A stretch of 64,000 nt of DNA from Minisyncoccia bacterium (lineage in GTDB: Bacteria; Patescibacteriota; Minisyncoccia; UBA6257; 2-01-FULL-56-20). Below the pieces are notes generated by a model. It was not told the origin of the DNA. It worked only from the letters and a program-made list of their open reading frames with translations, and ran no database searches. The stretch is from positions 130,246-194,245 of the forward strand of contig JBEKML010000001.1 in the NCBI GenBank assembly GCA_050008535.1, written 5' to 3'. Of the stretch, positions 12,798-39,175 are shown one piece after another; position 1 is the first letter of the stretch; the number at the start of each line of letters is the position of its first letter. A program made the translations under genes and the position numbers.

Positions 12798-12810
12798 AGC
12801 AGCAAAATCA

Positions 12811-12960
12811 AGCTTATCGGGTTTTGCCGGATTCAATCAATTAATCCGGCAATGCGGCAAAAAGTGAGGTAATCCGGCAAAATTTAATGAAAATTTAATA
12901 ATTGCCGGATTATGCTTGCCGGAAAGGAATTTCGATAACTTTTAAGGATTTCCACAGGCC
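12811..12960. repeat. Cluster of ccggcaa / ttgccgg direct and inverted motifs upstream of the dksA/traR-like gene
   Basis: atccggcaa occurs three times and ttgccgga three times within 150 nt. Confidence 0.45.
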
Positions 12961-13023
12961 ATCCACAATTTCGTGGTACCGGCCACATAGAGTCCGCCAG
13001 GCGGTCTGCTAAAATGTACTCCT

Positions 13024-13356: not shown

Positions 13357-13408
13357 GCACAAGAAATCTTTTAGAACTTTTTAATCGGCGGAATGGTATT
13401 GATGGAGG

Positions 13409-19630: not shown

Positions 19631-20460
19631 TGCCCAACAAATTTCTCGGACAACATTTTTTGAAGAATGCGGCGATCGCGCAAAAGATCGTCGCCGCGCT
19701 CCAGCCGGAACACGGCGACGTTATTTTTGAAATCGGCGCGGGGCACGGCGAGCTTACGCGGCTCCTTGCGGAAGCCTGCACAAAGAACGGATGCGAACTT
19801 TTCGCGATCGAAAAAGACCGGCACCTCGCGGGTGAGCTCGCGCAGCGATTTAAAACGAATGGCGTGGAAATTATTGCGGATGATGCATTGGCATTTTTCA
19901 CATCATCGCTCCCCGAAAAATCGCGGGGCCGCTCATATAAAATCGTCGGCAACATCCCCTATTATTTCACTGGCCGCCTGTTCCGGGTCGTGAGCGAACT
20001 CGAGGCGAAGCCAGCGCGATGCGTCCTCATGGTCCAGAAAGAGGTGGCGGAGCGGATCGCCGCAAAACCGCCGAAGATGAACCGGCTTGCGGCAAGCGTA
20101 CAATTCTGGGCAGACGTAAAAGTGATAGCTCCGGTCCCTAGAGAAAATTTCCTGCCGGCGCCCAAGGTGGATTCCGCAATCATATCGCTGGACTTAACCA
20201 ATGACAAAAAGCGTGCAGAAAACATCCCGGCGGATCACTACTATGCGGCGGTACGAAGCCTCTTTGCGCAGCCAAGGAAGACTGTGCTCAACAACTTGGG
20301 AGGGCACGGGACGCAGGAAGAGAGGGAAATGGCCGCATCCATTTTAAAAAAAATCGGTGTCCCGCAAGAATCGAGGCCGCAAAACCTTACCGTGGAAGAA
20401 ATCATGGCAATTGCAAAAGCCATCCTTAATGAGCGTTTTGGGGATAACCACATGGCTTGA
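19630..20460 (+). CDS. rsmA: 16S rRNA (adenine1518/1519-N6)-dimethyltransferase RsmA/KsgA
   Basis: GQHFL, the SAM-binding EIGAGHGELT motif and NIPYY. The start overlaps the pcrA stop (TGATG). Confidence 0.9.
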   Translation: MPNKFLGQHFLKNAAIAQKIVAALQPEHGDVIFEIGAGHGELTRLLAEACTKNGCELFAIEKDRHLAGELAQRFKTNGVEIIADDALAFFTSSLPEKSRGRSYKIVGNIPYYFTGRLFRVVSELEAKPARCVLMVQKEVAERIAAKPPKMNRLAASVQFWADVKVIAPVPRENFLPAPKVDSAIISLDLTNDKKRAENIPADHYYAAVRSLFAQPRKTVLNNLGGHGTQEEREMAASILKKIGVPQESRPQNLTVEEIMAIAKAILNERFGDNHMA

Positions 20461-20488
20461 CAGCGCCTTTGCGCTATAATCTATATAA

Positions 20489-22276
20489 ATGATAGACGTA
20501 AAGAAACTGGTCGTCGGGTTTCTGGTTTTGGCTGCCGCGACGGGCTCTTCGGCTTTCATTATCTCAACCACCAGCACCCTCTCCGCAAACAACGCCTCAC
20601 CACCGCCTTCAAGCCCCGTAGCCGCCCCACTGCTCAGCGGTAATGCATTCGTGGCTCAACCTGCGGTTCCGGACATGAGCGACGTCGGCGTCGCGGGGCT
20701 TACCGATCCAACCCTCACCTCTTCAACCGAGACACAAGCAACGGACCCAAACAATCTTACCGAGGTGTTGGCGGGTTCGTTTCTCAACAACCTCGTCTCG
20801 GCGAACCCTGCCGGCGTTCAGACGGGACCGGATGGCAACACGATGCTCATAGCGCCGGACAACGGCGCGATCATCGCCCAACTCACAAAGAACGATGCGT
20901 TTAAAAAACTCCCCATCCCCAATTGGGATATAGAAGCGGCGGAGCAACCGATTATGATCGAAACGAGTTCTTCCCCGAATGCTTTAGCAAATTACAGCGA
21001 TGCGGTAAAAAATATCTTTAACCAGTATTTTGTAGAAACCAATCTCCAGAGCATGCTCGATCAAAACGCCGACCCGAACGCCGCCGGCTACGTTCATGAC
21101 CAAATCCAGAGCGCATTGCAAAACGTCGGCGGACTCAAGGTCCCGGCGGCGGCGGCGGATTTTCAAAAAAGCATCGTGAAGCTCTTGGTTTACGAAAAGA
21201 ATCTGGCGGAACTTGTCCGGAGCGCTTCGGGCGACGACCCCCTTAAGGCCGTGCTCGTTTTTCAAACGCAACGCGAGAAGTACTCCGCCACGCTTCAAGA
21301 TTTCAAAAACGAGCTGCAAAAAAATCCCGCAGGACAAATATTTTCTTCCAATGGAGATTCCCGGCAAGAACGTTCTGGCGTAGCCGTATTTCTCCGGAAC
21401 CTCGTTGGGATAAAAACCGCCAACGCCCAATGGCTGACGTTTGATGCGTCGAATTTTGCGCAAATGCTCCTTGACTATGCAAACAACATCATTCTCCAGA
21501 TTCTCAAAAATTTGATCATGAAGCTGATGCAGAATACCGTCCTGAAATGGATCAGCGGCAAGGGTGTCCCGCGCTTCATACAGAACTGGGGCAGGACGCT
21601 TGTGAACTCCTATACCACCGCAGCGGTCAATGCAATAGATCAACAAATGGCGTGCATCAATCCATCGCTCGCCCCGCGGCTAAGTGTCCTTTTTCAAGTT
21701 CCCTCTTTTAATAATGGAGGTGGCGGATTCTGCGCCATCCAGTTTCAAAATCAGTTGGCCGGAAACAAGCTGACGCAGTTTTACAACAGCTTCGAACAAG
21801 GCGGCGTTGATTCCTACCTGAAGCTGTTCCAGCCGGGCGGCAACGACTTCGGCATCCTTATAGACATCCAAGACCAGGCAATGGCGGCAGGAGGGAACAG
21901 CAAGAATGCCACACAGGCGAAATCCGCCGCTAACCAGGGATGGACCGGCAACGAACAATGCGCCGATGGTAGCGATCCGAACGGGGTGCACAATCATTGT
22001 ATAGACTCAAAGGGTGTTGGATCCTATACCAATCCAGATGGGACCTGCGACCCCGGTCTCTTCTCGGAAGAAGTAGGAAATGGCGGCAAATGCGCCAACG
22101 GCGAAGATCCTCTCACTACATCCCCCGGCCAGGTTACGGGACAGGTATTCAACTCAACAGTGAAGGGCGGCCCTGAACTCGTCACTGCAGCGAACGACAT
22201 TGTGGGACTCTTAAATGCCTTCCTTACTTCCCTCCTTAACTCCCTTGCAAGCGCCGCTATAAATTCCCTCAAGTAA
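20489..22276 (+). CDS. Hypothetical secreted/membrane-anchored protein (first gene of the T4SS-like cluster)
   Basis: N-terminal signal anchor. Gln/Asn/Ala-rich. No recognisable domain. Confidence 0.45.
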   Translation: MIDVKKLVVGFLVLAAATGSSAFIISTTSTLSANNASPPPSSPVAAPLLSGNAFVAQPAVPDMSDVGVAGLTDPTLTSSTETQATDPNNLTEVLAGSFLNNLVSANPAGVQTGPDGNTMLIAPDNGAIIAQLTKNDAFKKLPIPNWDIEAAEQPIMIETSSSPNALANYSDAVKNIFNQYFVETNLQSMLDQNADPNAAGYVHDQIQSALQNVGGLKVPAAAADFQKSIVKLLVYEKNLAELVRSASGDDPLKAVLVFQTQREKYSATLQDFKNELQKNPAGQIFSSNGDSRQERSGVAVFLRNLVGIKTANAQWLTFDASNFAQMLLDYANNIILQILKNLIMKLMQNTVLKWISGKGVPRFIQNWGRTLVNSYTTAAVNAIDQQMACINPSLAPRLSVLFQVPSFNNGGGGFCAIQFQNQLAGNKLTQFYNSFEQGGVDSYLKLFQPGGNDFGILIDIQDQAMAAGGNSKNATQAKSAANQGWTGNEQCADGSDPNGVHNHCIDSKGVGSYTNPDGTCDPGLFSEEVGNGGKCANGEDPLTTSPGQVTGQVFNSTVKGGPELVTAANDIVGLLNAFLTSLLNSLASAAINSLK

Positions 22277-22279
22277 CCT

Positions 22280-24631
22280 ATGAAGAAAAAATTTCTTAAG
22301 TTTTCCGTCCCTCTTGGATTTTTGCTTTTCCTCGGGTCCACACACTTCGCTTGTGCCGCCGACGCTCCCTCGACTCCCCCGGTCTCTTTCTCCCTTTTTG
22401 GATTGGGCGATCTCGCTTATATAGTCATTAGTAGGATAGCCTTCGGGATAAGCTATTTGATGGCCGTCGTCGGCGCTATTGTAATCGCTATGGAATCATG
22501 GCTCGTCGGGGTCATGCTAAACATAAACACCACCGTCTTTGATTCGCCAGTCGTTCAGAAAGGATTTGGTGTTACGTTATCCATCGCCAACCTCGGCTTC
22601 GTCCTTGGCATTATCGTGATCGCGATCGCCACAATTCTGCGCAGGGAAACGTACGGGATAAAGAAAATACTCTGGAAGCTTGTTTTTGCCGCCGTCCTCG
22701 TCAATTTCAGCCTGGTCATTATGGGGCCCATCTTCGGCTTCGCGAATTCCCTCACCCAATATTTCTTGAATTGCATTGATCCGTCCGTCAGTTGCAACGC
22801 CCCAAGCGGATTCACCGCCATGACCTCCATGAATGATTTTGCGGAAAGGCTTGCGGGGGCATTCAATCCACAAAGAGATTTTCTTTCCCTCGAAACAACA
22901 GCGAATACAAACGATCCAAAACTTGATAATATCGCCGGAGCGGCCTCCATCGGAGGAGCCAGCTTCGGGAAAATGATCGTCCCTATTTTATCGATGGTAT
23001 TTGTCGCCGTGGCCCTTATTGTCATTGTTATAGTGCTTGCCGTATTCGTCTTCATGCTCCTCGTACGCTATGTCTACATCGCCATCCTCGCGGTGCTCAT
23101 GCCTTTCGCATGGCTCGCGTGGATATTCCCCAGCCTTTCCAGCCATTGGAAGAAATGGTGGGACACCTTTTTCCGGTGGACATTCTTTGCTCCCATCGTG
23201 GTCTTTTTCCTCTGGCTTGCAATTGCGACGGCGGCGTCCATGAGCGAACCAACGACCAAATCTAATTTCGCCATGTACACCAGCAATAGTAACGAGCTCT
23301 GGGCGCCGATCGCAAACTTTCTCACCAACCTTTTCTCTCCGCTTATCCAAAACCTCCTAAATGAATTTATCCTTGTTGGACTTATGGTGGGAGGCATGAT
23401 CGCCGCGAACAAAATGAGTATCACGGGAGCGAGCGCGGCCGTGGGCGCCGTGAAGTCGGTTGGCAACGCGATGCAGGGGTACGCAACCAAACAAGCGAAG
23501 AAGGGCGCGCGCTGGACCTATCAGAGGGCCGGCGGCGCAAAACTAAACGAGAGGTTACAAAAGAGCAGGATTCCATTTACCTCTGCGCTTGGGAGAAGCA
23601 TGGCGGGCGTTACGGAAAAAGGAGGAAAGGACCTGGTTAAGGAAGCCGCAACGCAACTCAAGCTCGCGGGGATGAGCGACGAACAGCTCTTGATGGCAGC
23701 ACAAGGGGCAAGAGGCAAAGAAAACACTCTTGCAGTTCTCGCTGAGGCGCAGAAGCGCGGGATATTGAATAAGGTAGGGAAAATCGGCGGAGAAGAAAAT
23801 CTCAGCGCCTGGCTCGAGAAAAACCAGAGAACTTTTGGGGATTACGACCACGGAAAGCTTCATGGTGACGTCAACTTTGCCCTTGACTCGGACGAACGAA
23901 TGCGGAGAATTGCCAAAGCGCAAGGGGAGGCAAGGGCGATGGCGGGAGCGGTAGATGTTCACGGAATCCTGGGAGCGCCAGGGACGTTGGTATCGGCAGA
24001 AAGACTAGCTGAAGAAGCTAGGACACTTAGAAAACAAGCTAAAGACCCCATAGACGTGATGGCGGCAGAAAGCTCTTTAAAGAATGCGAATGATGCCCTC
24101 AGGAAAGCAGCTGATGAAGTGGAGGTGTCCGATGAGGTGGGCAAAGACGGGAAAACGCTCTTGGGTGGGCCTGCGGATCAGATGGTGAAAGCCGGGGAAC
24201 TCATGCGCGCGGCGGCGGAAGAATTCTTTAAGAATATAGACAGGGCCGATATTGCAAAATTCAAGCCGGGACAGATCTTCGGCGGCACGGCAAGCTTCGG
24301 CTTGTCCAGGGAAGCCATTGAGGCACTAAGCGAGGGGGTCGCCCATGGTCTGGCCGTGAAAACTCCTGCTCTTATGCCATCGCTAATTGGGAAGTTGGAT
24401 TCTTCAGAAAGACTCCAGCGTTTTGCTGATACTTATAGGGCCGCGATCGAAAAAGCTGCAACGGCGGCAGGGGGAGGAAGGATTAGCGCAACAGATGTCA
24501 CAAAATTAACCGAAGCGCTTAAGAGCGCTATGGGTAACCGCCTCGTTTGGGATTCTGGCGCTGCTGCTGCTCCTACGCCCACACCCACGCCAGCGCCCAC
24601 ACCGCCACCTGGTGGCGCGCCACGCCCATAA
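22280..24631 (+). CDS. VirB6/TrbL-like polytopic membrane protein with a long hydrophilic C-terminal extension ending in a PT-rich tail
   Basis: Signal peptide, then more than six TM helices in a TrbL-like arrangement. The C-terminal ~400 aa is a soluble coiled/charged region ending PTPTPTPAPTPPP. Confidence 0.5.
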   Translation: MKKKFLKFSVPLGFLLFLGSTHFACAADAPSTPPVSFSLFGLGDLAYIVISRIAFGISYLMAVVGAIVIAMESWLVGVMLNINTTVFDSPVVQKGFGVTLSIANLGFVLGIIVIAIATILRRETYGIKKILWKLVFAAVLVNFSLVIMGPIFGFANSLTQYFLNCIDPSVSCNAPSGFTAMTSMNDFAERLAGAFNPQRDFLSLETTANTNDPKLDNIAGAASIGGASFGKMIVPILSMVFVAVALIVIVIVLAVFVFMLLVRYVYIAILAVLMPFAWLAWIFPSLSSHWKKWWDTFFRWTFFAPIVVFFLWLAIATAASMSEPTTKSNFAMYTSNSNELWAPIANFLTNLFSPLIQNLLNEFILVGLMVGGMIAANKMSITGASAAVGAVKSVGNAMQGYATKQAKKGARWTYQRAGGAKLNERLQKSRIPFTSALGRSMAGVTEKGGKDLVKEAATQLKLAGMSDEQLLMAAQGARGKENTLAVLAEAQKRGILNKVGKIGGEENLSAWLEKNQRTFGDYDHGKLHGDVNFALDSDERMRRIAKAQGEARAMAGAVDVHGILGAPGTLVSAERLAEEARTLRKQAKDPIDVMAAESSLKNANDALRKAADEVEVSDEVGKDGKTLLGGPADQMVKAGELMRAAAEEFFKNIDRADIAKFKPGQIFGGTASFGLSREAIEALSEGVAHGLAVKTPALMPSLIGKLDSSERLQRFADTYRAAIEKAATAAGGGRISATDVTKLTEALKSAMGNRLVWDSGAAAAPTPTPTPAPTPPPGGAPRP

Positions 24632-24638
24632 AACCATC

Positions 24639-25655
24639 ATGTTAACTATTTCTAGGCAGCAAGCGCTTAAAAGATGGGACACCATTCCCGAAGCCCTTCA
24701 TGTTGCGCTCTTTTCCGATGCCAACACCGATTTCATCCGGAAAACATGCGAAGCCGAACATGTCCCCGCCGAAAAAATAAGTGATATCGCAGGGATCGCC
24801 GGCTACGTACTGCTTGGTTTCCTTCACCCGGAAGATCTCGCAGAAGAGTTGAAGGAGGCCACTGGCATAAACCCGCAGGTTTGCACGTCGGTCGCGAGCG
24901 CTATAAACTCCAGAATCTTCACGCCACTCAAATCAGAACTTGATAAAATTTATGAACCTCTTTCAACGCTTGGTAATGATGGTTCCGCCGGCCCGAAAAT
25001 CATAGAAGAGATCCAGGCCATGACGGGGACGGCTCCGCGGATAACAATCAGTGCTGCGCCGACGGCGCCCACAAAGCCAAGCTTGTCCGATGCGGGATGG
25101 TCAAAAACGACTGTTGAGCAGCCGGTGGTGCGGCTAAGCCAGACGCCGCCTGCCCCGCCCGTCGCAAAACCAACAATACCGACGTCGGCGCCGGCGCCAA
25201 CAATGCCGCCAAAGAAATCCGTTGGTGAATTTGAACGGTTAGCAATGCAAAGCAGTGCTCTAAAGCCGCAAGTGGCGGCTCCCATGGCATCCGCAGCGCC
25301 GGCGGCGTTGGCGATACCCACACCAAAGCCCGCCGAACCCGCGCCGGTCATCATCCACGAGGACGCAGTATTCAGACCGCAGCAAAAAGCGCCCGATTTT
25401 CATTTCGCGCTCCCCACCGAAAAAATTGACATGCAAAAACCGGCCGGGCCGCCGGCCTTGGGGGCCGCCGTTCTTGAGTTTGGGAAAACGCCGGCGGCGT
25501 CCGCGCCAAAACCGTCGGCTTCAACGCCGCGCGTGGTCCACTATACGGAATACCAACCGACCCCGAAGGGAACCGGGACGCCACCGACCTCCCCGCAAGG
25601 TCCGCGGCAAATAACCGAGGTCACCGCACCCCCGCCGCCACCGCCCAAAAAATAG
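24639..25655 (+). CDS. Hypothetical proline/alanine-rich protein
   Basis: Low complexity (PAPPVAKPTIPTSAPAPT). The start was chosen at MLTISRQQ. Confidence 0.35.
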   Translation: MLTISRQQALKRWDTIPEALHVALFSDANTDFIRKTCEAEHVPAEKISDIAGIAGYVLLGFLHPEDLAEELKEATGINPQVCTSVASAINSRIFTPLKSELDKIYEPLSTLGNDGSAGPKIIEEIQAMTGTAPRITISAAPTAPTKPSLSDAGWSKTTVEQPVVRLSQTPPAPPVAKPTIPTSAPAPTMPPKKSVGEFERLAMQSSALKPQVAAPMASAAPAALAIPTPKPAEPAPVIIHEDAVFRPQQKAPDFHFALPTEKIDMQKPAGPPALGAAVLEFGKTPAASAPKPSASTPRVVHYTEYQPTPKGTGTPPTSPQGPRQITEVTAPPPPPPKK

Positions 25656-25667
25656 AAAGGTGGGCGG

Positions 25668-25690
25668 CCCCGGCGAAAGCCGGGGTTTTT
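25668..25690 (+). terminator. Rho-independent terminator (ccccggc-gaaa-gccgggg followed by ttttt)
   Basis: Read directly. A TATAAT box at 25700-25705 follows, 6 nt before the prgI-like ATG. Confidence 0.6.
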
Positions 25691-25711
25691 GATTCGTATT
25701 ATAATAAACTC

Positions 25712-26221
25712 ATGCAGTTCCAAGTCCCGCAATTCATTGAAACCGAGGATAAGATCGTTGGGCCGCTTTCTCTTCGGCAATTTATCTATGTGGGTGTCGG
25801 TGTCGGCATCTCCGGCATGCTTTTTTTTATCCTTCAGTTTTGGCTGTGGGTGATCATCGCGGTCATTCTTGTTGGCGGTTCTGTTGCCATCGCATTCGTG
25901 AAGATCGGGGGGAGGCCGCTCGCGAAGGTCGTTCTCTCGGCTTTCAATTTTTATTGGAAGCCGCAGACCTATGTTTGGCAACCGGAGCACCCGCAACTTG
26001 AAAGAAGCAAGGCGCCGGCCGAAACCAAAGTACCCGCGAGGAACACAGTGATCGAAAAGATTGCCGAGGGAACGGCGCTCCATAAGAGCTGGGAAGACGT
26101 TCAAACCGGCAAAAAAATGTCCGCCAAACAGTTCACGGAGCAGAAAATGTCCGGCCGCTACGAGATTTTCCGGAAACTTATGGGCGATCGCGAAGCAGCG
26201 CGGAGAGTGGACTATCGCTGA
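25712..26221 (+). CDS. PrgI-family (VirB3-like) small membrane protein
   Basis: The N-terminal pattern VPQFIETEDKIVGPLSLRQFIYVGVG followed by two TM helices is typical of PrgI/TcpE proteins encoded just upstream of VirB4 in Gram-positive-type T4SS. Confidence 0.55.
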   Translation: MQFQVPQFIETEDKIVGPLSLRQFIYVGVGVGISGMLFFILQFWLWVIIAVILVGGSVAIAFVKIGGRPLAKVVLSAFNFYWKPQTYVWQPEHPQLERSKAPAETKVPARNTVIEKIAEGTALHKSWEDVQTGKKMSAKQFTEQKMSGRYEIFRKLMGDREAARRVDYR

Positions 26222-26243
26222 TAACAATGGGAAAATAGAGCCA

Positions 26244-26921
26244 ATGGCACCTAAACAAGATCTTGGCAATTCACTCGACCTCGTAAACATCAAGGAGATC
26301 CGGAACGATACGGTCATCGTGAAGAGCGGTGGCATGCGGCAGATCATAATGGTCGGCGGTGTGAATTTCGCGCTTAAATCGGAAATGGAGCAGAATATCA
26401 TGACGCAGGCGTACCAGAATTTCCTGAACGGCATTGATTTTCCGCTGCAGATCGTAGTTCATTCACGAAAAGTGAATATTGATAAATATATAGAAACGCT
26501 CCTTGTGCGGAAGGAAGCGGAGGAATCGGCATTGCTCCAGAACCAGATCGAGGAATACGTTGGGTTTATAAAAGGGTTCGTACAAAAGAACGCGATCATG
26601 GAAAAAACGTTCCTTGTGGTTGTCCCGTTCTACCCGGCGAACATCCTCCCCACTAAAAAAACCGCCTCAAGGTTCCTCCCTTTCCTTAAGAAAAAGCAGA
26701 ATGCGACCGAGGAAGCGAAGGATGCCGTGGAGGCCGAACGTATTCTCGCGGAGAACTTCGCGCAACTTGGCCAGCGGGTGGCCCAGGTAACGAACGGCCT
26801 TTCTGCCATCGGGCTTGAGACTACCGTCCTGAACGATGAGGCGCTTATCGAGCTCTTCTATAATTTCTACAACCCGCAGACTATTGAGAGAAAAAACATG
26901 GTTCTGCCCCAAGAAAAATAA
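26244..26921 (+). CDS. VirB4/PrgJ-like ATPase, N-terminal fragment (225 aa)
   Basis: DLVNIKEIRNDTVIVKSGGMRQIIMVGGVNFALKSEMEQ matches the conserved N-terminus of Gram-positive VirB4 homologues. The ORF ends with TAA 1 nt before the next ATG. Confidence 0.6.
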   Translation: MAPKQDLGNSLDLVNIKEIRNDTVIVKSGGMRQIIMVGGVNFALKSEMEQNIMTQAYQNFLNGIDFPLQIVVHSRKVNIDKYIETLLVRKEAEESALLQNQIEEYVGFIKGFVQKNAIMEKTFLVVVPFYPANILPTKKTASRFLPFLKKKQNATEEAKDAVEAERILAENFAQLGQRVAQVTNGLSAIGLETTVLNDEALIELFYNFYNPQTIERKNMVLPQEK

Positions 26922-26922
26922 C

Positions 26923-28656
26923 ATGCCCGACGAAAACCAGGATAAATTCAAGGACGTAAAACAGATCATTGCGCCGGCGGGCGCCCAGGTGTTCCCAAGC
27001 TATTTAAAGATCGGCGACAAGCTTGCGAAGACCTTTTTCGTCTTCTCCTATCCGCGCTACCTTGCGACGGGATGGTTCGAGCCGCTTATCAACCTTCCCA
27101 ATCTTTTTGATATTTCGATCTTTATAAATCCGATCGATACCGGCACGGCGCTCAAAAATCTCCGCAAGAAAGCGGGGCAGCTGGAGTCCCAAATGAACGA
27201 CGAACAGGACAAGGGGCTTGTGCGGAACCCGATGCTTGAGACCGCCATCAAAGACGTGGAGAATCTGCGCGACGCGCTTCAACAGTCGGAAGAGAAACTT
27301 TTTGACACCGGTGTTTATATTACGATCTATGCCGACGACAGCCAGGAGCTTGCCCGTCTTGAAAGTAAGCTTGTTACGATGATGGAGGCAAAGCTCATCT
27401 ATCTCAAGCCCGCGCTCTTTGAACAACTTGAAGGGCTTTCCTCCGTCCTTCCCCTCGATGAGGATAGCGTCCAGGTCTACACGCCGATGGACACGAACCC
27501 TATTTCCTCGTTTTTCCCGTTCGTCTCGGAAGACCTCTCGTCAAACCAGGGGATCATGTACGGCATCAATTTGCATAATAATAATTTGGTGATCTTCGAC
27601 CGCTTCTCGCTTGAGAACGCGAACCAGGTGGTCTTCGCGAAATCCGGTTCGGGAAAATCCTACACGACAAAGCTCGAGATCGTCCGCTCGCTTATGGCGG
27701 GCGTGGACATGGTGCTTGTGATCGACCCCGAGAACGAATATCAACGGCTTGCGAACACTTTTGGCGGCAGCATGTTCAACATCTCGCTCTCTTCGCACGA
27801 GCATATCAATCCGTTCGATCTTCCGCTTATCCCGGAGGGTGAAACACCGTCGGATGTCCTGCGCTCGCACATCGTGACCCTCGCAAGCTTATTGAAGCTG
27901 ATGTTGGGCAAGCTCACGCCGGAAGAAGATTCGATCCTTGACCGTGCGATCACCGAAACCTACGCCTCGCGCGAGATCGTCATTGATGCCGACTTTACCG
28001 GGAAGGAAGCGCCGCTTTTGGGCGATCTCGAAGTCGTGCTCCGCAACCTTGAGGGCGGCAAAGGCCTGGCGGAAAAACTCTATAAATACACCAAGGGGAG
28101 CTTCGCCGGGTTCTTGAATCAGCCGACCAATATTGATATCAATAATCGCCTTATTATTTTCTCCATCCGCGACCTTGAAGAGGAATTGCGTCCGATCGGG
28201 ATGTTCGTCGTCTTGAATTTCATCTGGAGCCTGATCCGCGCAAAACTCGCGAAGCGGCTGCTCTTTATTGATGAGGCGTGGATCATGATGAAGAACGAGG
28301 ACAGCGCCACGTTTCTTTTTGGCCTCGTAAAGCGCGCCCGTAAATACTTCCTGGGCGTATCCACCATCACGCAGGACGTGGAGGACTTTTTGCGCTCGCC
28401 GTACGGCCGGCCCATCATCACAAACTCGTCCCTGCAGATGCTTTTGAAACAGGCGCCGGCGACCATAGACGTCGTCGCGAAAGCGTTTGACCTTACCGAT
28501 GCCGAGAAAAATTTCTTGCTCAGCGCGGAGGTCGGCACCGGCATCTTCTTCGCCGGCAAGCGCCACGTGGCCATCCAAATCGTGCCATCGTATTTTGAGG
28601 ATCAGATCATCACCACGAACCCCGAGCAGCTGCTTGAGGAGAAAAAGGAACAATAG
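26923..28656 (+). CDS. VirB4/TraC-family conjugal-transfer ATPase, C-terminal portion with the ATPase domain
   Basis: CagE/TrbE/VirB4-type region (FFVFSYPRYLATGW), Walker A AKSGSGKSY and Walker B LLFIDEAW. Length is 577 aa. Confidence 0.85.
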   Translation: MPDENQDKFKDVKQIIAPAGAQVFPSYLKIGDKLAKTFFVFSYPRYLATGWFEPLINLPNLFDISIFINPIDTGTALKNLRKKAGQLESQMNDEQDKGLVRNPMLETAIKDVENLRDALQQSEEKLFDTGVYITIYADDSQELARLESKLVTMMEAKLIYLKPALFEQLEGLSSVLPLDEDSVQVYTPMDTNPISSFFPFVSEDLSSNQGIMYGINLHNNNLVIFDRFSLENANQVVFAKSGSGKSYTTKLEIVRSLMAGVDMVLVIDPENEYQRLANTFGGSMFNISLSSHEHINPFDLPLIPEGETPSDVLRSHIVTLASLLKLMLGKLTPEEDSILDRAITETYASREIVIDADFTGKEAPLLGDLEVVLRNLEGGKGLAEKLYKYTKGSFAGFLNQPTNIDINNRLIIFSIRDLEEELRPIGMFVVLNFIWSLIRAKLAKRLLFIDEAWIMMKNEDSATFLFGLVKRARKYFLGVSTITQDVEDFLRSPYGRPIITNSSLQMLLKQAPATIDVVAKAFDLTDAEKNFLLSAEVGTGIFFAGKRHVAIQIVPSYFEDQIITTNPEQLLEEKKEQ

Positions 28657-28676
28657 CGACCACCGGGCGCACGCAC

Positions 28677-29576
28677 ATGGACGACGAAAACAAGGAGGAA
28701 GGTAAAATAGATTGGTTCAGCACCGAGGCGGTCACCATTTTCACCACCGCGTTCATTGGCGATGTTCTTTGTGTTCTGTTCTTGCCTCACTATATTGCCG
28801 GTGCCATGGCATATAGTTTTTTATGGCCGAAAACGCATGGCTTTCTGGCAAAAACGGTTCTCGTCATAGCATTTTTGATCCCCATTCCTTTTATCCTTTC
28901 TTTGGGCGCGTGGCTCGCGATATTCCTATCTAACAAGATCATCGCTGCTATCGCCACGCAGGTGGTGATCCAAGCCGTCGCAGCCGGCACGGGCGGCGCC
29001 GGAGAGGCACTTGAAGTGGGTGCCGTCGCCGCAGAAACAGCGGAGGTGGGGGCGGCAGCGGCCGAAGCAGGGGCGGCGGCGACAGAGGTTGGCGCGACAG
29101 CAGTAGAAACGGGGGCGGCGGCAGGCGGAACAACAGGAGCGGGCGCAGCAGCGGCAGAAACAGGAGGGGTGGCGGCAGAAGGGACCGAAGCAGCGGGAGC
29201 CGCCGGAGGAGGTGCCAGGGTCACGGGAGAGGGCGTAGGCGCAGGGGAAGGCGCAGGGGAAGGCGCTGCTGGAGAGGCTGGCGCACCCGAGGTGGAGCCA
29301 GAGGCACTTGGCGAAGAAAGAGAACCGATGGAAAAACTCGAAAAAGAACTTTTTAAGGAAACACCAAAAACAGAGGGTCCTGCCGAGGCTCCGGAAGAGG
29401 AGACGCCCCAAAAAGAGGAAACCGACGCCGAGAAAAAGACCCGCGAGGCTCGCGAAAGAGCTGAAAAGATTAAGGAATGGATGGATCGGCTCCGACCGAA
29501 GGAAGAGGAGGAAGAAGGCAAGGCGGAGGACGAAGAGGAAGAAAATGGCGGAGAAGATATGCCCTTGGCGGCATAA
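28677..29576 (+). CDS. Membrane protein with a long Ala/Gly/Glu/Thr low-complexity region and an acidic C-terminus
   Basis: N-terminal TM helices, then (A/G/E/T)n repeats encoded by GCN-rich DNA. The C-terminus is a Glu/Lys-rich tail. Confidence 0.4.
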   Translation: MDDENKEEGKIDWFSTEAVTIFTTAFIGDVLCVLFLPHYIAGAMAYSFLWPKTHGFLAKTVLVIAFLIPIPFILSLGAWLAIFLSNKIIAAIATQVVIQAVAAGTGGAGEALEVGAVAAETAEVGAAAAEAGAAATEVGATAVETGAAAGGTTGAGAAAAETGGVAAEGTEAAGAAGGGARVTGEGVGAGEGAGEGAAGEAGAPEVEPEALGEEREPMEKLEKELFKETPKTEGPAEAPEEETPQKEETDAEKKTREARERAEKIKEWMDRLRPKEEEEEGKAEDEEEENGGEDMPLAA

Positions 29577-29592
29577 AAGAAGGCGATAAACA

Positions 29593-30315
29593 ATGTGGTA
29601 CAATAAAAGTATGGTGCAAAATGGTTTTTTAAAAAAAGCTGTGTTTGCTATACTAATTGTAATTTTCACGCTCTTCGTCGTTCTCCAAACCAACGCCCAA
29701 ACGGCACAGCCCTCCTTGCCACAATTTTTGGTGACTTGGCGCGCCCTCAATAGTTTTGTACCGCCACTTTATGTCGGGAAGGTCCTCCCGGGAGCCAGGT
29801 CGCGGATCACGGCCTCGCTCGAACTTGTTTCCAATGGAAAACTCGTTAACCTAAAATCGCAGACGATTTATTGGTATTTAAACGACAACCTTCTGGGCGG
29901 CGGCGCCGGAATGCAACGCATAACCTTTTCCCCTTACGACGGCACGGCCGGTACGCTTGTGTTGAGGATTGAACTGCCGGATTTTGGAGGAAAACTTCTG
30001 ATGCACGAGGTGACAATCCCCGTTGTAAGGCCGGTGGCAGTGATCTACGCGCCCTACCCCAACGACCAATTTTCAGGAAGCCAGGCGACCGTAAAAGCGT
30101 TGCCTTATTTTTTCAACGCATCTTCATCGGCGCTTGCTTTTGAATGGTCCGTCAATGGTGTCTCCGTAGAAAGCAAAGAGGGGCCCGATATCCTTCATGT
30201 TAATCTCCCCGGTGACACCCCGTCCAATTCTAAAGTCAACATCTCGCTCACCATGCAGAACCCGGGGGACTCAACCATGGCCATCGCGTCAAAAAACCTC
30301 ATTTACCAAAAATAG
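29593..30315 (+). CDS. Hypothetical secreted protein
   Basis: Signal anchor FAILIVIFTLFVVL. No domain recognised. Confidence 0.4.
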   Translation: MWYNKSMVQNGFLKKAVFAILIVIFTLFVVLQTNAQTAQPSLPQFLVTWRALNSFVPPLYVGKVLPGARSRITASLELVSNGKLVNLKSQTIYWYLNDNLLGGGAGMQRITFSPYDGTAGTLVLRIELPDFGGKLLMHEVTIPVVRPVAVIYAPYPNDQFSGSQATVKALPYFFNASSSALAFEWSVNGVSVESKEGPDILHVNLPGDTPSNSKVNISLTMQNPGDSTMAIASKNLIYQK

Positions 30316-30317
30316 TT

Positions 30318-30791
30318 ATGAACTTGTTCATTGCAATCGCTCATGCGGCGACCGTCAACCTCAACATCCCCGGGTCAAGCGTTCCCTCCGCCGACATCCC
30401 AGGCATTATTAGAAATATTTATGACTTCGCCCTTCTCGCCGCGGGCATCCTTGCCTTCGGGGCCATCGTCTGGGGCGGGATCAGGTATGCCACAGGGAAA
30501 GGGAATCCCTCATCGGAGACCGAAGGCAAGAGCTGGATCACGAACGCCCTCCTTGGGCTCCTGCTCCTGGTGGGCGCCTATATCGTCCTCTACACCATCA
30601 ATCCAGACATCGTCTCATTGCAGATAACGGGGGTCACGCCGCTTAGCGGGGCGCCAGCGGGGACCGCTGGCAACTCCGGCGCAGGGACGGGAGGGGGAGT
30701 AGCCAGTGGCCAATCGTGTCGTTTTGACAGAGACTGCGCATCGCTATCGTGCAAGCTTGATGTTAGTAAAGACGGATGGTATTGCAAATAA
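30318..30791 (+). CDS. VirB2/TrbC-like pilin candidate
   Basis: Signal sequence followed by two hydrophobic helices separated by a short polar loop (ALLAAGILAFGAIVWGG ... ALLGLLLLVGAYIVLY), the hallmark topology of T4SS pilins. Cys-containing C-terminal tail. Confidence 0.5.
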   Translation: MNLFIAIAHAATVNLNIPGSSVPSADIPGIIRNIYDFALLAAGILAFGAIVWGGIRYATGKGNPSSETEGKSWITNALLGLLLLVGAYIVLYTINPDIVSLQITGVTPLSGAPAGTAGNSGAGTGGGVASGQSCRFDRDCASLSCKLDVSKDGWYCK

Positions 30792-30792
30792 A

Positions 30793-32043
30793 ATGACTAG
30801 GCGCTATTTAATCATTGGGGTTGTCATCATCGTCATCCTTGGGCTGGTCGCTATTTGGTGGTTCTTCTTGCGTGGCACAACGACCCCGCCGGCGCCGGCC
30901 GGGAGCACGGGAATTCTCCCGCAGACGGGGGGGGCGCAAACCGGCACGGGGACCAGCGGCAATCTCCCCTCCGGCGGGAATCCTGTCGCGGGCATCCCGA
31001 ACGCCGCAACGAAATTTGGCGTTGTGTCGGATGAGCCCGTCCTCGCTTATTTTGTGGATGCAGGAAACAATGTGATCATTGTTGAGCCGGATGGGAAAAT
31101 TGCACGCGTCACGAACGGCCAAACTACTTTCTTAAGTTCGTCACAAATTGCAAACTTGATGGCTGCCAGTTTCTCGTATGACGGCGCGAAGGCGTTGGTA
31201 AGTTTCGGCGATCGGGACAATCCACAAACCAGCATTTTTGATCTCGCCACAAAAGCCTGGGCCCCGCTCACGATGGGTATTATTTCCCCTGTCTGGTCGC
31301 CAAGCGATTATCGCATTGCCTATCTCGCCTCCAATACGGACGGCACGAAAACGCTCGCCACGCTTAACGCCGCAAAAACAACCGCCAAGCCGAGCACGCT
31401 CCTTTCCCTAAACGCGCAGGATCTTTCCCTTGTTTGGCCCAGCAAGAACAACATCGTTCTCTCCGAGAAACCCAGCGCGCTCACGAACGGATCTGCTCTG
31501 CTCTTTAACCTCCAAAACCAAACACTCACTCCTATAACCCTTGAAGTGTCCGGCTTTGAAGCGCTCTGGAATGGTAACGCAACAAGCGCAGCCGCAACTC
31601 CTTTTGGCCTTGTGTTTTCTGCAAACACCCCGCGGCCAGGCGGACGACTGCGGCTGATCAACCCTTCCGGGAATACCGTGCAGAGCGTAAATTTCCTCAC
31701 CCTGCCTTCAAAATGTCTTTTCCACCGCGAAAGCCCCGTGCTCCCGCCCGGCGCTTCTTCCACCACCTCCACGGTACCGGTGGCGCCGTACCTTGCGCTT
31801 TATTGTGCGGTGCCAGAGGACCAGGACGAGCTCTCAAGTGCCCGGTTGCCCGACGATTATGAACAGATGGCGCTTTTCACCGCAGATGCCTTCTATGGTA
31901 TCCACACCGACACCGGTGCGATGGACAGCGTCTTCTCTCCGCCGCAGAACATGGATGCCGCGGACCTGGGCATTTTCAACCACATACTTTTCTTCATCAA
32001 CCGCTACGACCAAAAGCTGTACGCTATTTCGCTCACCCAATAA
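30793..32043 (+). CDS. Membrane-anchored hypothetical protein (possible beta-propeller-like periplasmic domain)
   Basis: N-terminal TM helix, a Gly/Thr/Pro linker, then a Ser/Thr/Asn-rich region. Last gene of the plus-strand cluster. Confidence 0.4.
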   Translation: MTRRYLIIGVVIIVILGLVAIWWFFLRGTTTPPAPAGSTGILPQTGGAQTGTGTSGNLPSGGNPVAGIPNAATKFGVVSDEPVLAYFVDAGNNVIIVEPDGKIARVTNGQTTFLSSSQIANLMAASFSYDGAKALVSFGDRDNPQTSIFDLATKAWAPLTMGIISPVWSPSDYRIAYLASNTDGTKTLATLNAAKTTAKPSTLLSLNAQDLSLVWPSKNNIVLSEKPSALTNGSALLFNLQNQTLTPITLEVSGFEALWNGNATSAAATPFGLVFSANTPRPGGRLRLINPSGNTVQSVNFLTLPSKCLFHRESPVLPPGASSTTSTVPVAPYLALYCAVPEDQDELSSARLPDDYEQMALFTADAFYGIHTDTGAMDSVFSPPQNMDAADLGIFNHILFFINRYDQKLYAISLTQ

Positions 32044-32046: not shown

Positions 32047-32487
32047 CTATAAGATCGGCTTGATGATCACGTACCGTTCCTTCCCTTCACCGACGGATTC
32101 CGTCGTCACCTCGGGATGGATCGCAAGCTCGACGTGCACGAGGCGCCGCTCATAAGAGTTCATTACCGGAAGCGGCACTTCGGCTTTTGTCGTGAGCGCC
32201 TTCTTCGCCGCCGCGCGCGCGAGCTCCATGATAAGATTTTCCCGTTCCTGCCGATAATTATTCACATCAAGAAAGATGAGGTCGATCGCATTTTTTTTGG
32301 CGATCATTTGGAATAAATGGTTTACGCTTTCTACGATGCTGGGAAGGTTCTCTTTAAGAAAGCCTCCGCCGTCGTAAATGAAAAGTGAACCGCGCTTTTC
32401 TTCCGGCTTGATCTCTATGTGGTAATCGCGGAATCCCATGAACTCAACGATGTTTTTCACGAGCGTCTCCCAGTTCTCCATTTTCAC
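32047..32487 (-). CDS. jag: Jag/KhpB-like RNA-binding protein (KH + R3H domains)
   Basis: C-terminal R3H motif MNSYERRLVHVELA. It sits downstream of yidC as in the canonical rnpA-yidC-jag operon. Confidence 0.75.
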   Translation of the reverse strand: MKMENWETLVKNIVEFMGFRDYHIEIKPEEKRGSLFIYDGGGFLKENLPSIVESVNHLFQMIAKKNAIDLIFLDVNNYRQERENLIMELARAAAKKALTTKAEVPLPVMNSYERRLVHVELAIHPEVTTESVGEGKERYVIIKPIL

Positions 32488-32563: not shown

Positions 32564-35203
32564 TTAGTACGAATCGCAAGTATCCTGCCCTGCCGAAGTG
32601 TACGTTGGAGTGAACAGGCCCATTTGTTGTATGAGTGCCTTCATGGCGCTGTCCTGACTACCCCAAACAGCACAGTTAATGGGTTCCACTTGGATTTGCT
32701 TGGTGGTTACAGAAGACAGGGGGAGCTGATTTGTGATTATATTGGTTTGTGCAGCGGCCGGGACTGGCACAAGCGCATAATACTGGCCCGAACCCTGAGC
32801 CATAAACTGGTAGTCGGGAGTGTAGCACTCGCTCTGCCAATAGGTGACTGTCTGCACTTTCGGCGTGAGGCACGTCACGGTTACTTGGTGGGTTTCTGGA
32901 GCGACATAGGGAACCCATTTGGCGTTTACGCTGACCTTGATGGTAGAGGTTATGGCTGGCGAGGACGAGTCCTTGACTATAAATGAAGCCTGACCTCGCC
33001 CGACGCCGGTGATGCTGAGGTTCGTGCCGGAAAGGAGCACCGTTGCCACTCCTGCGCCCGGCGGGGTCGCCACACTATAAGGCGCCGTGCCAGCGATTAT
33101 GGCTATGTTAATCGTATCGTCAACCCTGATCACGGGATTTTGTTGTGAGATGGTCACTAAGCCCGGGCTGCTGACCGGACCACTTTCAGGGCAAACGGCT
33201 GTGGTGGGCACAAGATCCGTCGAGCGGCCCAGGGATCCGTCGTAGTTGGGATTGAACAATATGGGCGGGGTGGAGCGCGCTTTGGTCCACCACTCATGTA
33301 AGGTGTAGCGATAATCAACTGGGGGGAGTAGTGGATCGCCACCCTGCATGGTGTACACATCGTATTTAGTAGATGCTGGGGTGAGTTTGTAGAGGTTGTT
33401 CCACCCGGTTCCCAACGACTTACCTTTTATAAAATTATCAGCTTCTATTCTGGCGTATTGATCTATGCCTTCTTGGGTCGTATCTGGTCCGTAATTTATT
33501 ATGCTTCGCGCGTGGTCGTACACGGTCTGCCAGCTCAGGGTTTCTCCAAGTGCTTTCCCGCCATTAGCCACAATATCTGGGGTGGACGCCGCAGCGGTAG
33601 CCATCAATTGATAAGCTTGCTTTAGTAAAGTAGAGGCGGTGCATCGTTCCGGAGTGACGGTCCATTTGGTGACTTGGTCTATTTGTGTACATGCCCAAGG
33701 TTTGTCTGAGGGTACGGTACAGCTTCCGGCGGTTGGGGTAGGGATGGTTGAGCTAGTACTGCCTATTCTGGTTTGCATACCAGCCACGTTCTGTGAAATC
33801 CTGCTTATGGCCGGCGAAAAGAGGTCGGCGAGGTCGGACGCGGAAATGCCGTTCTGCTGCAACAGGGTCATCTGGCTTTGTATCTCCTGTAATTGCTGTG
33901 CGGACTCTTGAAGGATCGAGTCTAATGAGTTTTGAATTGCGTTAAGCGTGCTAGTTGACCCATATGGTGGGAGGGTAGTCCCACCGGCCTGGGCTTGGGT
34001 TAAAGTTTGTGGTTGTGCGTTGGCAGCCGTGGTGGCGGAATTTTGTATATTGGCCAAGTTTTGCGAAATCTGGTTTATGGCCGGCGAAAAGAGGTCGGCG
34101 AGGTCGGACGCGGAAATGCCGCTCTGCTGCAACAGGGTCATCTGGCTTTGTATTTCCTGCAGCTGCTGTGTGGATTCTTGAAGGACTTGATTCCATGAGG
34201 ATGAGGATTGGGTAGTGGCAAAAAACGGCGTAGAGCTCGATGTAGAAGTAACCACAGCGCCGGTTCCGCCGTTGTTTGATTGATTTTGGTTATATGCCGC
34301 CGGTGCCGGGGCATTGCAATGGTTGCTTATGTCATTTGGCACGACGTTCTGCCACGTCGAGGCAGTTACAAGGGCGTCTGTACCTATGGTCATGTCGCCA
34401 CAGGAAGTGTGCAGCGTGCAACTTAAATTGATGGTATAAGGAAGGCCCGTATTGAAATCCACGCCTATGGGCCCCATCCCCATCACTGCCGGTGCGCAAC
34501 TCACGTCATATCCCAAAGACCTTCCTATCCCCTCTGCAACCCGCGCCTCGTCGGCCGCCGCATAAAAGTTTGCGTGCTCGGGCGCGCACAGGCCGCCGGT
34601 TTCCGCTCCGGAACACACATTGATTCTCACATAACCGCCGTTGGGGCTGGGAACGAGACAGGTATTTGCGGAGGCATTATACGTATATGGAACGCATGCC
34701 GCTTGGGCCAGCGCAACGTCCGGGCGGCACATCGTGAAATTCGGGTTGGAAGGTGTCTCGTATCCCGTGCATGACGATGTGGAATTATACAATCCCGACG
34801 AATTCACCGTTACCTGGCCAGCAGGACATGACTCAGCCACGTCGCAGGGGGTATAGCTTGAAAGGTCGGCCTTGCACCCACGAAGCTGAATGGCGCAGCC
34901 GGGGACTGTTTTCTGGCACTTCAGGCTCTGGTTCCCGCCGCATTCGGTCGGATCAGGAGGGGGAGGAGGGGGAGGAGTTATTTTTTGGTCATCCGGACAG
35001 GTAGTGTTCAACATGCAACCGAATGGGCTCGTACAACCATTTATTTCCACCTTGCACCAATCGGCTTTTATGGTACAAGCCCGGGAGGCGTCCGAGCACA
35101 CGGCCCCTATTGCCGCATTCGCGGTCTCATATGAACGCATGACAACCGCAAAAAAGGCGACGACAACAACTAGCCCAACGGCAAAAAACAGATATTTTTT
35201 CAT
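32564..35203 (-). CDS. Giant Cys-rich secreted repeat protein (paralogue A)
   Basis: Signal anchor, a PPPPPPPDP linker, many Cys, and two tandem ~60-aa repeats of the form (QQLQEIQSQMTLLQQ[NS]GISASDLADLFSPAI..). Length is 879 aa. Confidence 0.7.
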   Translation of the reverse strand: MKKYLFFAVGLVVVVAFFAVVMRSYETANAAIGAVCSDASRACTIKADWCKVEINGCTSPFGCMLNTTCPDDQKITPPPPPPPDPTECGGNQSLKCQKTVPGCAIQLRGCKADLSSYTPCDVAESCPAGQVTVNSSGLYNSTSSCTGYETPSNPNFTMCRPDVALAQAACVPYTYNASANTCLVPSPNGGYVRINVCSGAETGGLCAPEHANFYAAADEARVAEGIGRSLGYDVSCAPAVMGMGPIGVDFNTGLPYTINLSCTLHTSCGDMTIGTDALVTASTWQNVVPNDISNHCNAPAPAAYNQNQSNNGGTGAVVTSTSSSTPFFATTQSSSSWNQVLQESTQQLQEIQSQMTLLQQSGISASDLADLFSPAINQISQNLANIQNSATTAANAQPQTLTQAQAGGTTLPPYGSTSTLNAIQNSLDSILQESAQQLQEIQSQMTLLQQNGISASDLADLFSPAISRISQNVAGMQTRIGSTSSTIPTPTAGSCTVPSDKPWACTQIDQVTKWTVTPERCTASTLLKQAYQLMATAAASTPDIVANGGKALGETLSWQTVYDHARSIINYGPDTTQEGIDQYARIEADNFIKGKSLGTGWNNLYKLTPASTKYDVYTMQGGDPLLPPVDYRYTLHEWWTKARSTPPILFNPNYDGSLGRSTDLVPTTAVCPESGPVSSPGLVTISQQNPVIRVDDTINIAIIAGTAPYSVATPPGAGVATVLLSGTNLSITGVGRGQASFIVKDSSSPAITSTIKVSVNAKWVPYVAPETHQVTVTCLTPKVQTVTYWQSECYTPDYQFMAQGSGQYYALVPVPAAAQTNIITNQLPLSSVTTKQIQVEPINCAVWGSQDSAMKALIQQMGLFTPTYTSAGQDTCDSY
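33750..34181. repeat. Tandem ~210-nt repeat pair inside paralogue A, near-identical to 36180-36609
   Basis: Antisense six-frame peptides ...LMAGEKRSARSDAEMPFCCNRVIWLCISCNCCADS recur at 33639-33911, 33948-34181, 36127-36342 and 36379-36609. Boundaries are approximate. Confidence 0.7.
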
Positions 35204-39047: not shown

Positions 39048-39091
39048 GAATTTGGAGTGTGCTAGTTTTTTATGTGTTGTTTATTAAGTGG

Positions 39092-39111
39092 TTATACACA
39101 TACCATCCACA
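39092..39111. promoter_or_regulatory. DnaA-box-like sequences (TTATACACA at 39092-39100 and cCATCCACA at 39103-39111) upstream of dnaA
   Basis: Compared by eye with the consensus TTATCCACA. They lie in the rpmH-dnaA intergenic region. Confidence 0.45.
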
Positions 39112-39175
39112 AATCATTTGATTTGACTCTTTGACGCGCCAGGCGTAAGAGTTAATAATAAACAGAACAACAATC

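Follow-up and report, generated by a model that had tools for sequence, protein, structure and literature searches.

A Patescibacteria clade of type IV secretion systems (T4SS) has been described by Quinonero-Coronel et al. 2025 (PMC12102498), with TrsD beside virB4 and pilins of family PF18895, without a relaxase, and in Paceibacteria located near dnaA, dnaN, ksgA, rnpA and rpmH. In Saccharibacteria, Southlakia epibionticum ML1 cannot grow as an epibiont without its T4SS (SEML1_0006-0019) and the pilins of that system (Wang et al. 2023, PMC10633639), and the Patescibacteria T4SS is the only one reported to be essential for the survival of its owner (PMC12857230). Here we analyze a stretch of 64,000 nucleotides from a Minisyncoccia bacterium (assembly GCA_050008535.1, contig JBEKML010000001.1, positions 130,246 to 194,245; hereafter the window), in which positions 20489-32043 hold a cluster of ten genes. 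We are confident that this cluster is the core chromosomal, relaxase-free T4SS of a Paceibacteria bacterium, a member of the Patescibacteria clade derived from monoderm MPF_FATA machines, which would serve a host-dependent lifestyle independently of a relaxase and not conjugation. Systems of this kind were already published in 2023-2025, and the window is a further example with extra anatomical detail.

A T4SS cluster near the replication origin is common to nearly all ultra-small Patescibacteria. Compared with the clade of PMC12102498 the component set is the same (MPF_FATA VirB4, TrsD beside virB4, PrgI/VirB3, VirB6 and a PF18895 pilin), a relaxase or type IV coupling protein (T4CP) is likewise absent nearby, and the site near dnaA, dnaN, ksgA (rsmA) and rnpA is shared; nothing essential differs. 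The Southlakia system is also Gram-positive-like and has pilin genes within its cluster, where neither a coupling protein nor a relaxase can be recognised (PMC10633639); its low locus-tag numbers suggest that it too is origin-proximal. It differs in belonging to the class Saccharimonadia, in carrying six divergent pilins against one here, and in having peptidase and lysozyme genes directly downstream of virB4. Essentiality was shown there, whereas for the window locus it is assumed.

Similarities to systems outside the Patescibacteria are more partial. The VirB4 of the window is 28% identical to PrgJ of the pCF10 Prg/Pcf system and falls in one NCBIfam family with it, PrgI belongs to one Pfam family, and a separate TrsD/TraD gene before VirB4 is also found in the Trs/Tra systems of pGO1 and pIP501 (PMC12102498). 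However, compared to pCF10, pGO1 and pIP501 the window locus has no PcfC/VirD4, relaxase, in-operon PrgK-type hydrolase, detectable PrgL/VirB8 or PrgB adhesin. It does have a VirB2-like pilin, of which there is none in the Gram-positive systems, and it is part of the chromosomal core genome whereas these systems reside on a plasmid or an integrative and conjugative element (ICE). Helicobacter pylori ComB and Bordetella pertussis Ptl resemble the window system in lacking VirD4 and VirB5 (ComB also VirB11), in their VirB2-like pilins and in their non-conjugation functions (PMC12857230). Yet both are diderm MPF_T systems with a VirB7/9/10 outer-membrane core, whereas the window system is of the monoderm type and lacks these parts.

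The ten genes are as follows; those without an established name are numbered by their place in the cluster.

20489-22276 (+): g1, 595 aa, secreted or N-terminally anchored, helical
22280-24631 (+): extended VirB6/TrbL-like polytopic membrane protein, 783 aa, from transmembrane (TM) prediction, homologues and fold
24639-25655 (+): g3, 338 aa, N-terminal domain of ~110 aa followed by Pro/Ala-rich low complexity
25712-26221 (+): PrgI/VirB3-like small membrane protein, PF12666, TM segment at residues 36-54
26244-26921 (+): TrsD-like, detached VirB4 N-terminal domain, 225 aa, from profile matches
26923-28656 (+): VirB4 ATPase of the MPF_FATA / CD1110 family, 577 aa, without its own N-terminal domain
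28677-29576 (+): g7, small polytopic membrane protein, ~3-4 TM segments in the first ~110 aa and an Ala/Gly/Glu-rich low-complexity tail
29593-30315 (+): g8, 240 aa, bitopic, TM segment at 13-31, ectodomain of two repeated beta-rich modules
30318-30791 (+): VirB2-like T4SS pilin, PF18895, TM segments at 37-55 and 73-91
30793-32043 (+): g10, 416 aa, bitopic, TM segment at 6-24, Gly/Thr linker and ectodomain

The recognised components of the machine are encoded by five of these genes. PrgI scores 38.4 bits against PF12666, above the curated gathering cut-off (GA) of 27, and tblastn finds a homologue in 69 related loci; the PrgI/VirB3 assignment of an earlier note, made from the sequence without database searches, is borne out by this score. 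The VirB4 ATPase reaches 404 bits against NF045971 (CD1110 family, cut-off 325), matching that profile from position 159 on, and its alignment with PrgJ covers PrgJ residues 225-772 (E 3e-47). Walker A (AKSGSGKS at residue 239) and Walker B (LLFIDE at 446) are both intact. The 225-aa open reading frame (ORF) in front of it has no TM or signal segment and matches NF045975 VirB4_plasma (E 3.6e-10, profile positions 103-277), NF041427 TrsD (E 5e-6) and TIGR00929 (profile positions 10-177), with PF26593 TraC-like as precomputed annotation. BLASTP gave no pairwise similarity between this ORF and PrgJ, and its single sequence found no match among PDB sequences. We nevertheless take it as the VirB4 N-terminal domain because of these profile matches, the fused ORFs in relatives and the PrgJ alignment that starts at 225.

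The TAA stop of TrsD lies 1 nt before the VirB4 ATG and the two ORFs are in different frames. Both are fused colinearly into one ORF of 785-873 aa in 4 of 58 related species (L066 13476-15833, L017 14108-16486, L079 13266-15653 and L039 14768-17389) and are separate in the other 54. Since both halves are kept throughout these 54 species, the split is a conserved gene arrangement and no frameshift error; as the loci indicate, VirB4 is split or fused repeatedly within Paceibacteria. The earlier VirB4 claim is correct with regard to the ATPase, but VirB4 in fact comprises two ORFs, the 225-aa TrsD-like protein plus the 577-aa ATPase. No T4SS accessory is more abundant in Patescibacteria than TrsD as a gene of its own, and Southlakia cannot do without it (PMC12102498).

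For the 783-aa protein the evidence comes from homologues and fold. It starts with a signal peptide and ~7-8 TM helices, followed by a ~400-aa helical hydrophilic domain with a Pro/Thr-rich end. Four out of 35 close homologues match TrbL, at best with E 1e-5, and for others PF04610/PF19590/PF19597 appear as precomputed annotations. An AlphaFold (AF2) model with a predicted local distance difference test score (pLDDT) of 74.6 was compared by Foldseek with 350,542 PDB chains, and R388 TrwI/VirB6 came out on top (8rtd_L, 8rt9_F, 7o3v_J/F/G) at a probability of 0.93-1.00, E-values of 7e-3 to 0.18, TM-scores of 0.33-0.43 and 12-15% identity. TrwI is thereby the best structural match to the membrane domain, while the C-terminal helical domain of ~400 residues, although confidently predicted, has no solved relative among the PDB matches. 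A hidden Markov model (HMM) of the VirB6-like family found no match among PDB sequences. Failure of HMM searches to support VirB6 had been named beforehand as a possible refutation. The VirB6/TrbL claim with its ~400-aa tail lacks a direct Pfam match, but we keep the assignment because of the TrbL matches of homologues and the fold match to TrwI. The protein is thus supported by model and homologues as an extended VirB6, a class that is characterised by a large C-proximal hydrophilic domain (PMC12857230) and which it fits through that very domain.

The pilin, third gene downstream of virB4, scores 41.4 bits against PF18895 T4SS_pilin (GA 26.6) and consists of a two-TM core, a Gly-rich linker and a 4-Cys mini-domain. 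It had been proposed earlier as a VirB2-type pilin, which agrees with PF18895, but the family suggested at the time, TrbC (PF04956), is reached only at E 0.051. As a single sequence the pilin has no match among PDB sequences. The syntenic locus holds one pilin in 51 of 52 species.

Strong evidence concerning the nature of the cluster is provided by its surroundings, of which the following genes are needed here.

16615-17718 (-): peptidoglycan endopeptidase with two LysM domains and M23, N-terminal TM segment (Pfam Peptidase_M23 and LysM; NCBIfam DD-endopeptidase families)
19630-20460: rsmA, directly upstream flank of the cluster (Pfam)
32047-32487 (-): jag/R3H, downstream flank of the cluster (Pfam)
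38535-39047 (-): rnpA
39176-40528: dnaA, ~7 kb from the cluster
40613-41725: dnaN

Upstream lie the M23/LysM endopeptidase (-), uvrD and rsmA; on the downstream side come jag, a pair of large, unique surface proteins, and the genes yidC and rnpA, all of them on the minus strand, and then dnaA and dnaN. With a profile of the VirB6-like family we collected 80 loci, each from a different GTDB species, on which the window proteins were placed by tblastn. All 80 derive from metagenome-assembled genomes (MAGs) of the Paceibacteria/Parcubacteria type, and homologues of the genes neighbouring VirB4 come without exception from Patescibacteria MAGs. The order M23(-), UvrD, RsmA, g1, VirB6, g3, PrgI, TrsD, VirB4, (g7), g8, pilin, g10, Jag(-), YidC(-), RnpA(-), DnaA is near-invariant across the 80 species. 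Because this order is kept among housekeeping and origin genes, the cluster is vertically inherited core genome and no mobile element or ICE; as the synteny shows, the ten genes travel together as part of that core genome. GC content is flat at 0.51-0.56 across cluster and flanks, without a compositional island. Elsewhere in the window it dips to 0.44-0.48 at 12001-14000, 38001-42000 and 62001-64000; the dip at 38-42 kb spans rnpA, dnaA and dnaN, and the oriC region is likely located there.

Genes for conjugation are absent as far as the scans reached. Pfam searches of the selected main ORFs (>=110 aa) of the window found no relaxase, VirD4, VirB11 or integrase and annotated housekeeping genes throughout. 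The called genes ~10 kb past each window end are housekeeping as well, with no relaxase, VirD4/T4CP, VirB11 or integrase among them. The sole T2SSE ATPase of the window (45558-47273, +, 571 aa) has an MshEN domain and is of the PilB/GspE type; it was considered as VirB11 and ruled out, at 475 bits for PilB/GspE against 39 bits for VirB11. This ATPase gene sits alone between ruvC (44511-45071, -) and ruvB (47466-48509), with no other pilus genes recognised nearby. The earlier note had described ten co-directional genes between rsmA and jag, without relaxase, VirD4, VirB11 or flanking integrase, and had concluded that this is no conventional conjugative element; position, content and the synteny in 80 species all agree with that description, and the synteny carries more weight than the evidence available to the note.

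With respect to gene calls, all ten ORFs run in one direction (+), separated by 1-56 nt. JGI 3300038451 contig Ga0427963_0000021 (496 kb) matches the window at 100% identity, and the same calls recur on independent assemblies from several samples. Start codons were refined for g3 (24639), TrsD (26244), VirB4 (26923) and g10 (30793). Those of TrsD and VirB4 equal the public calls on the identical contig. For g3, the call on a strain contig (ENA ERZ27250059 k141_123647, here L001, of which positions 1-13743 align to window positions 16923-30666) agrees with 24639, whereas the call on locus L002 starts from 24612 (347 aa). The g10 of L002 is called with 427 aa, which corresponds to a start near 30760 against the refined 30793. 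The strongest plus-strand terminator-like hairpin of the cluster (25666-25687; 9-bp stem with 7 GC pairs and a T-run, from a consensus scan only) lies within the only sizeable gap, the 56 nt between g3 and prgI, and may be an internal attenuator or the boundary of two transcription units.

The remaining five genes of the cluster are conserved and clade-specific. Directly upstream of VirB6, g1 has a C-terminal region containing six Cys and a conserved LQILKN...WIxGxGxPRF motif, a sub-threshold match to DUF4141 that is seen again in 8 of 35 relatives. A PKD domain, present in addition in many relatives, is absent from the window g1, and comparison of the g1 profile with the PDB returned PKD matches only, for this missing C-terminal domain. 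Its predicted structure is a helical bundle, not NTF2, without a specific fold match. The order g1-VirB6, like virB5-virB6, and the helical bundle made g1 a speculative VirB5 analogue; the fold search gave no support for this. The protein g3 has no TM or signal segment (P 15%, A 14%). Its N-terminal block is conserved in 36 aligned relatives, the gene is present in 61 loci, and no Pfam, NCBIfam or PDB-profile match was obtained.

Relatives of g7 (A 20%, E 17%, G 13%) are found by BLAST in 16 loci only. An ORF fills the g7 slot in all 55 loci that have both VirB4 and g8 (median 249 aa, A/E/G-rich), and 44 of these 55 ORFs have at least two TM-like segments at the N-terminus. The modules of g8 are Ig-like by inspection and give a weak BiPBP_C match (E 0.004), with no PDB-profile match; the gene is conserved in 60 loci with a mean column identity of 43% in the family alignment. 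Finally, g10 is conserved in 48 loci and weakly matches TolB propellers in NCBIfam (E 0.005) and in the PDB-profile comparison, there along one repeat of ~35 residues (E 4.5e-4), so its ectodomain is probably a beta-propeller with TolB-like repeats. Presumably g1, g7, g8 and g10 are membrane or surface proteins. Among the proteins described earlier as six secreted or membrane hypotheticals, TM or signal segments are predicted in these four and in neither g3 nor TrsD. The two low-complexity proteins reported at that time are recovered as g3 (P/A-rich) and g7 (A/G/E-rich).

No signal for VirB8, VirB9 or VirB10 was found for the cluster proteins in Pfam or NCBIfam, and for g1, g3, g8 and g10 Pfam, NCBIfam and PDB profiles gave none for VirB8/PrgL. 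Comparison of g1, g3, g8, g10 and VirB6 with all Prg/Pcf proteins of pCF10 (including PrgL and PrgD) by hhalign never exceeded a probability of 20, although this comparison is low-powered, as VirB6 against PrgH was likewise missed. The idea that the neighbours are candidates for missing structural parts is therefore only partly sustained: they are conserved partners, but neither the g1 model nor the g3, g8 and g10 profiles show a VirB8/9/10 fold.

A cell-wall hydrolase is not encoded inside 20489-32043; the syntenic LysM+M23 protein lies two genes upstream on the other strand. A homologue of it is found by tblastn in 57 related loci, on the opposite strand just upstream of uvrD-rsmA-g1. VirB1-type matches with M23/LysM domains associate with virB4 in Paceibacteria (PMC12102498), and it is possible that the protein of the window is such a wall-remodelling partner, loosely attached to the system.

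The most variable part of the system is the end of the pilin. Across species, the tails that follow the conserved "...INP" end of the second TM segment are hypervariable in length and Cys content. The INP anchor could be located in 34 sequences, of which 32 are species loci and the other two are the window and the L001 variant. Among their tails, eleven are short, 19 exceed 35 aa and contain 4-32 Cys, and four are long without Cys; the Cys-rich group includes both the 4-Cys knob of the window and the tail of L001.

At the strain level, L001 is 98.8% identical to the window over the common part. The DNA is 100% identical from M23 through g1 and is a mosaic from there on, with identities of 99.8% for VirB6, 98.6% for g3, 95.5% for PrgI, 98.7% for TrsD, 99.8% for VirB4, 91.9% for g7 (20 gap positions; the most divergent gene), 97.9% for g8 and 94.5% for the pilin core. 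The ratio of nonsynonymous to synonymous substitution rates (dN/dS) is 0-0.26 for every gene and the differences in TrsD and VirB4 are synonymous only; by this measure the T4SS genes are under purifying selection. Compared with the housekeeping genes at its flank, the T4SS locus looks like a hot spot of recombination.

Similarity to L001 ends wholly at 30666, inside the pilin gene just past the conserved core. The region 13396-16393 of L001 holds a different pilin tail with 12 Cys, a 178-aa protein and four more PF18895 pilins. Further on come two membrane proteins, a Xer-like recombinase, rpsO and pnp, and this whole continuation stands where the window has g10-jag-yidC. In three more assemblies the sequence breaks off between 29140 and 30482. 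This suggests recombination or replacement between strains that starts inside the pilin gene, with cassette replacement, a rearrangement, an additional locus of one genome or a chimeric assembly as the alternatives for the L001 junction itself. Two metagenome scans with L001-specific strings (from a pilin paralogue and rpsO) returned no match.

A number of points weigh against reading the cluster as a complete T4SS of the Patescibacteria clade that works without conjugation. The VirB6-like protein itself has no TrbL/VirB6 match in Pfam, even at E 0.1, and the scores behind the VirB6 assignment are weak (Foldseek E 7e-3, TM-score 0.4). Neither a VirB8-like nor a VirB1-like protein was recognised; a role of M23/LysM is a guess based on a synteny that is equally true of UvrD and RsmA, and what ties g1, g3, g7, g8 and g10 to the machine is only that they are constantly adjacent to it and are of a membrane or secreted kind. 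A T4CP or relaxase could be encoded at another place of the 496-kb contig or of the genome, and distant T4CP homologues do occur in most Patescibacteria (PMC12102498). The assignment to the clade is based on component set, VirB4 type and gene context. Finally, this bacterium is uncultivated and the function of the machine is a proposal drawn from its genes.

With these reservations, the parts can be arranged into a working apparatus. PrgI would tether a hexameric TrsD/VirB4 motor to the VirB6 platform in a single membrane. VirB4 would then pull pilin from the membrane and, with VirB6 as the platform, polymerise it into a filament or tube of the VirB2 type across the thin wall, which the M23/LysM hydrolase encoded nearby may first cut locally. 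The external, host-contacting part would consist of the pilin tail, which is variable and rich in Cys, together with g1, g8 and g10 as ectodomain proteins. Such an apparatus may serve a host-dependent lifestyle through contact and relaxase-independent transfer of macromolecules.

Regarding the direction of transfer, we lean tentatively towards pilus-mediated contact with uptake of host material, because the essential function in Southlakia needs no T4CP (PMC12102498). Export of effectors seems doubtful, and a role in adhesion only we consider a little more doubtful. The pilus as a conduit to the host has been raised as speculation in a review (PMC12857230), and a cultivated Minisyncoccota parasite is reported to form host-directed tubes, possibly T4SS pili, and to acquire host RNA (bioRxiv 10.64898/2026.06.21.733656). 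A more detailed proposal, speculative and as a whole rather improbable, is that a disulfide-rich, hypervariable C-terminal knob of the pilin decorates the T4SS tube and sets which host can be tapped. Strains would swap this knob and the downstream ectodomain genes by recombination just after the pilin core, and the T4CP-less machine, with g1, g7, g8 and g10 replacing VirB5/VirB8-type parts, would import host macromolecules (e.g. RNA) and be no exporter.

Uptake of DNA in particular, by a competence T4SS like H. pylori ComB or archaeal Ced which imports environmental or host DNA as a nucleotide source, is a distinctly improbable variant. Patescibacteria, which lack de novo synthesis of nucleotides (PMC10633639), would have use for it, and like ComB the system has a VirB2-like pilin and no VirD4, VirB11 or VirB5 (PMC12857230). 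However, the ComB-type VirB7-10 were not found among the cluster proteins in Pfam and NCBIfam, so that only the absences of ComB match. The ATPase domain of VirB4 does match CedB/CedD, but weakly (32 bits against a cut-off of 700) and in the generic P-loop region only, and the Pfam scan of the window shows no competence gene adjacent to the cluster. Moreover, competence of Southlakia depends on type IV pili (T4P) and ComEC, and deletion of comEC abolishes competence but not viability whereas the T4SS is essential (PMC12857230, PMC10633639). The suggestion of DNA uptake or a cell-cell interaction in the earlier note consequently survives in its second half, which is supported by the link to episymbionts, by homologues that all come from Paceibacteria/Parcubacteria MAGs and by the literature, while the Southlakia comEC genetics disfavour the first.

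An ordinary ICE or ICE remnant, with relaxase, coupling protein and integrase outside the region examined, is already largely refuted and we give it next to no credence. It is true that a VirB4 of the CD1110 family, alignable with PrgJ, is typical of Gram-positive conjugative elements, and that the scans reached the window plus ~10 kb on each side of a 496-kb contig. Yet more than 20 genes on either side include no relaxase, T4CP or integrase, the gene order between the same housekeeping and origin genes is nearly invariant in 80 species, there is no GC island, and relaxases occur in only 103 of 3,035 Patescibacteria genomes (PMC12102498). The tyrosine recombinase of L001, ~5 kb downstream of its pilin array, might seem to point to an element, but it adjoins rpsO/pnp and looks like a housekeeping XerC/D-type enzyme. 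Decay of the cluster, with the VirB4 split as a frameshift pseudogene or assembly error and the low-complexity ORFs as noise, can be dismissed as scarcely credible: VirB4 is indeed read as two ORFs in different frames 1 nt apart and two genes are largely low-complexity, but the split is the majority state with both halves conserved, gene calls are identical on independent assemblies, Walker motifs are intact, selection is purifying in all genes (TrsD and VirB4 differ between strains by synonymous changes only), and a separate TrsD is both abundant in Patescibacteria and essential in Southlakia (PMC12102498).

Beside the T4SS, between jag and yidC, lie two large paralogues of 879 aa (32564-35203, -) and 845 aa (35247-37784, -) with N-terminal TM/signal segments and 30 and 10 Cys, respectively. 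They have common segments of ~500 nt at 85% identity and internally duplicated units of 111-134 nt, and the 845-aa protein gives a weak F5/8 type C (discoidin) match. The pair was not recovered from any of the 80 loci of related species and so is a lineage-specific insertion beside the T4SS; the two proteins may be adhesins. Further away, ARAGORN calls a tRNA-Ile with anticodon TAT (UAU) at 4312-4384 (-), where Rfam confirms only the presence of a tRNA. In bacteria a UAU tRNA-Ile is uncommon; AUA is read in most of them by a lysidine-modified CAU tRNA. Downstream of ruvB, a 324-aa protein without a family match (48518-49492, +) adjoins a lamin-tail-domain (LTD) protein (49524-50096, +).

Summarizing, a substantial part of bacterial diversity belongs to the Patescibacteria, which live at the expense of other cells. 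For the T4SS of Paceibacteria the window offers a clean, complete example, in which ten genes form a fixed module, VirB4 is naturally split and the pilin tail is variable and Cys-rich. Compared with the consulted parts of PMC12102498 it adds five conserved genes (g1, g3, g7, g8 and g10) whose order is fixed, TrsD and VirB4 fused in some species, variable pilin tails rich in Cys, and one pilin gene in place of an array. Wall-spanning and host-contact parts are still missing from the machine, and for these the five genes are the evident candidates.

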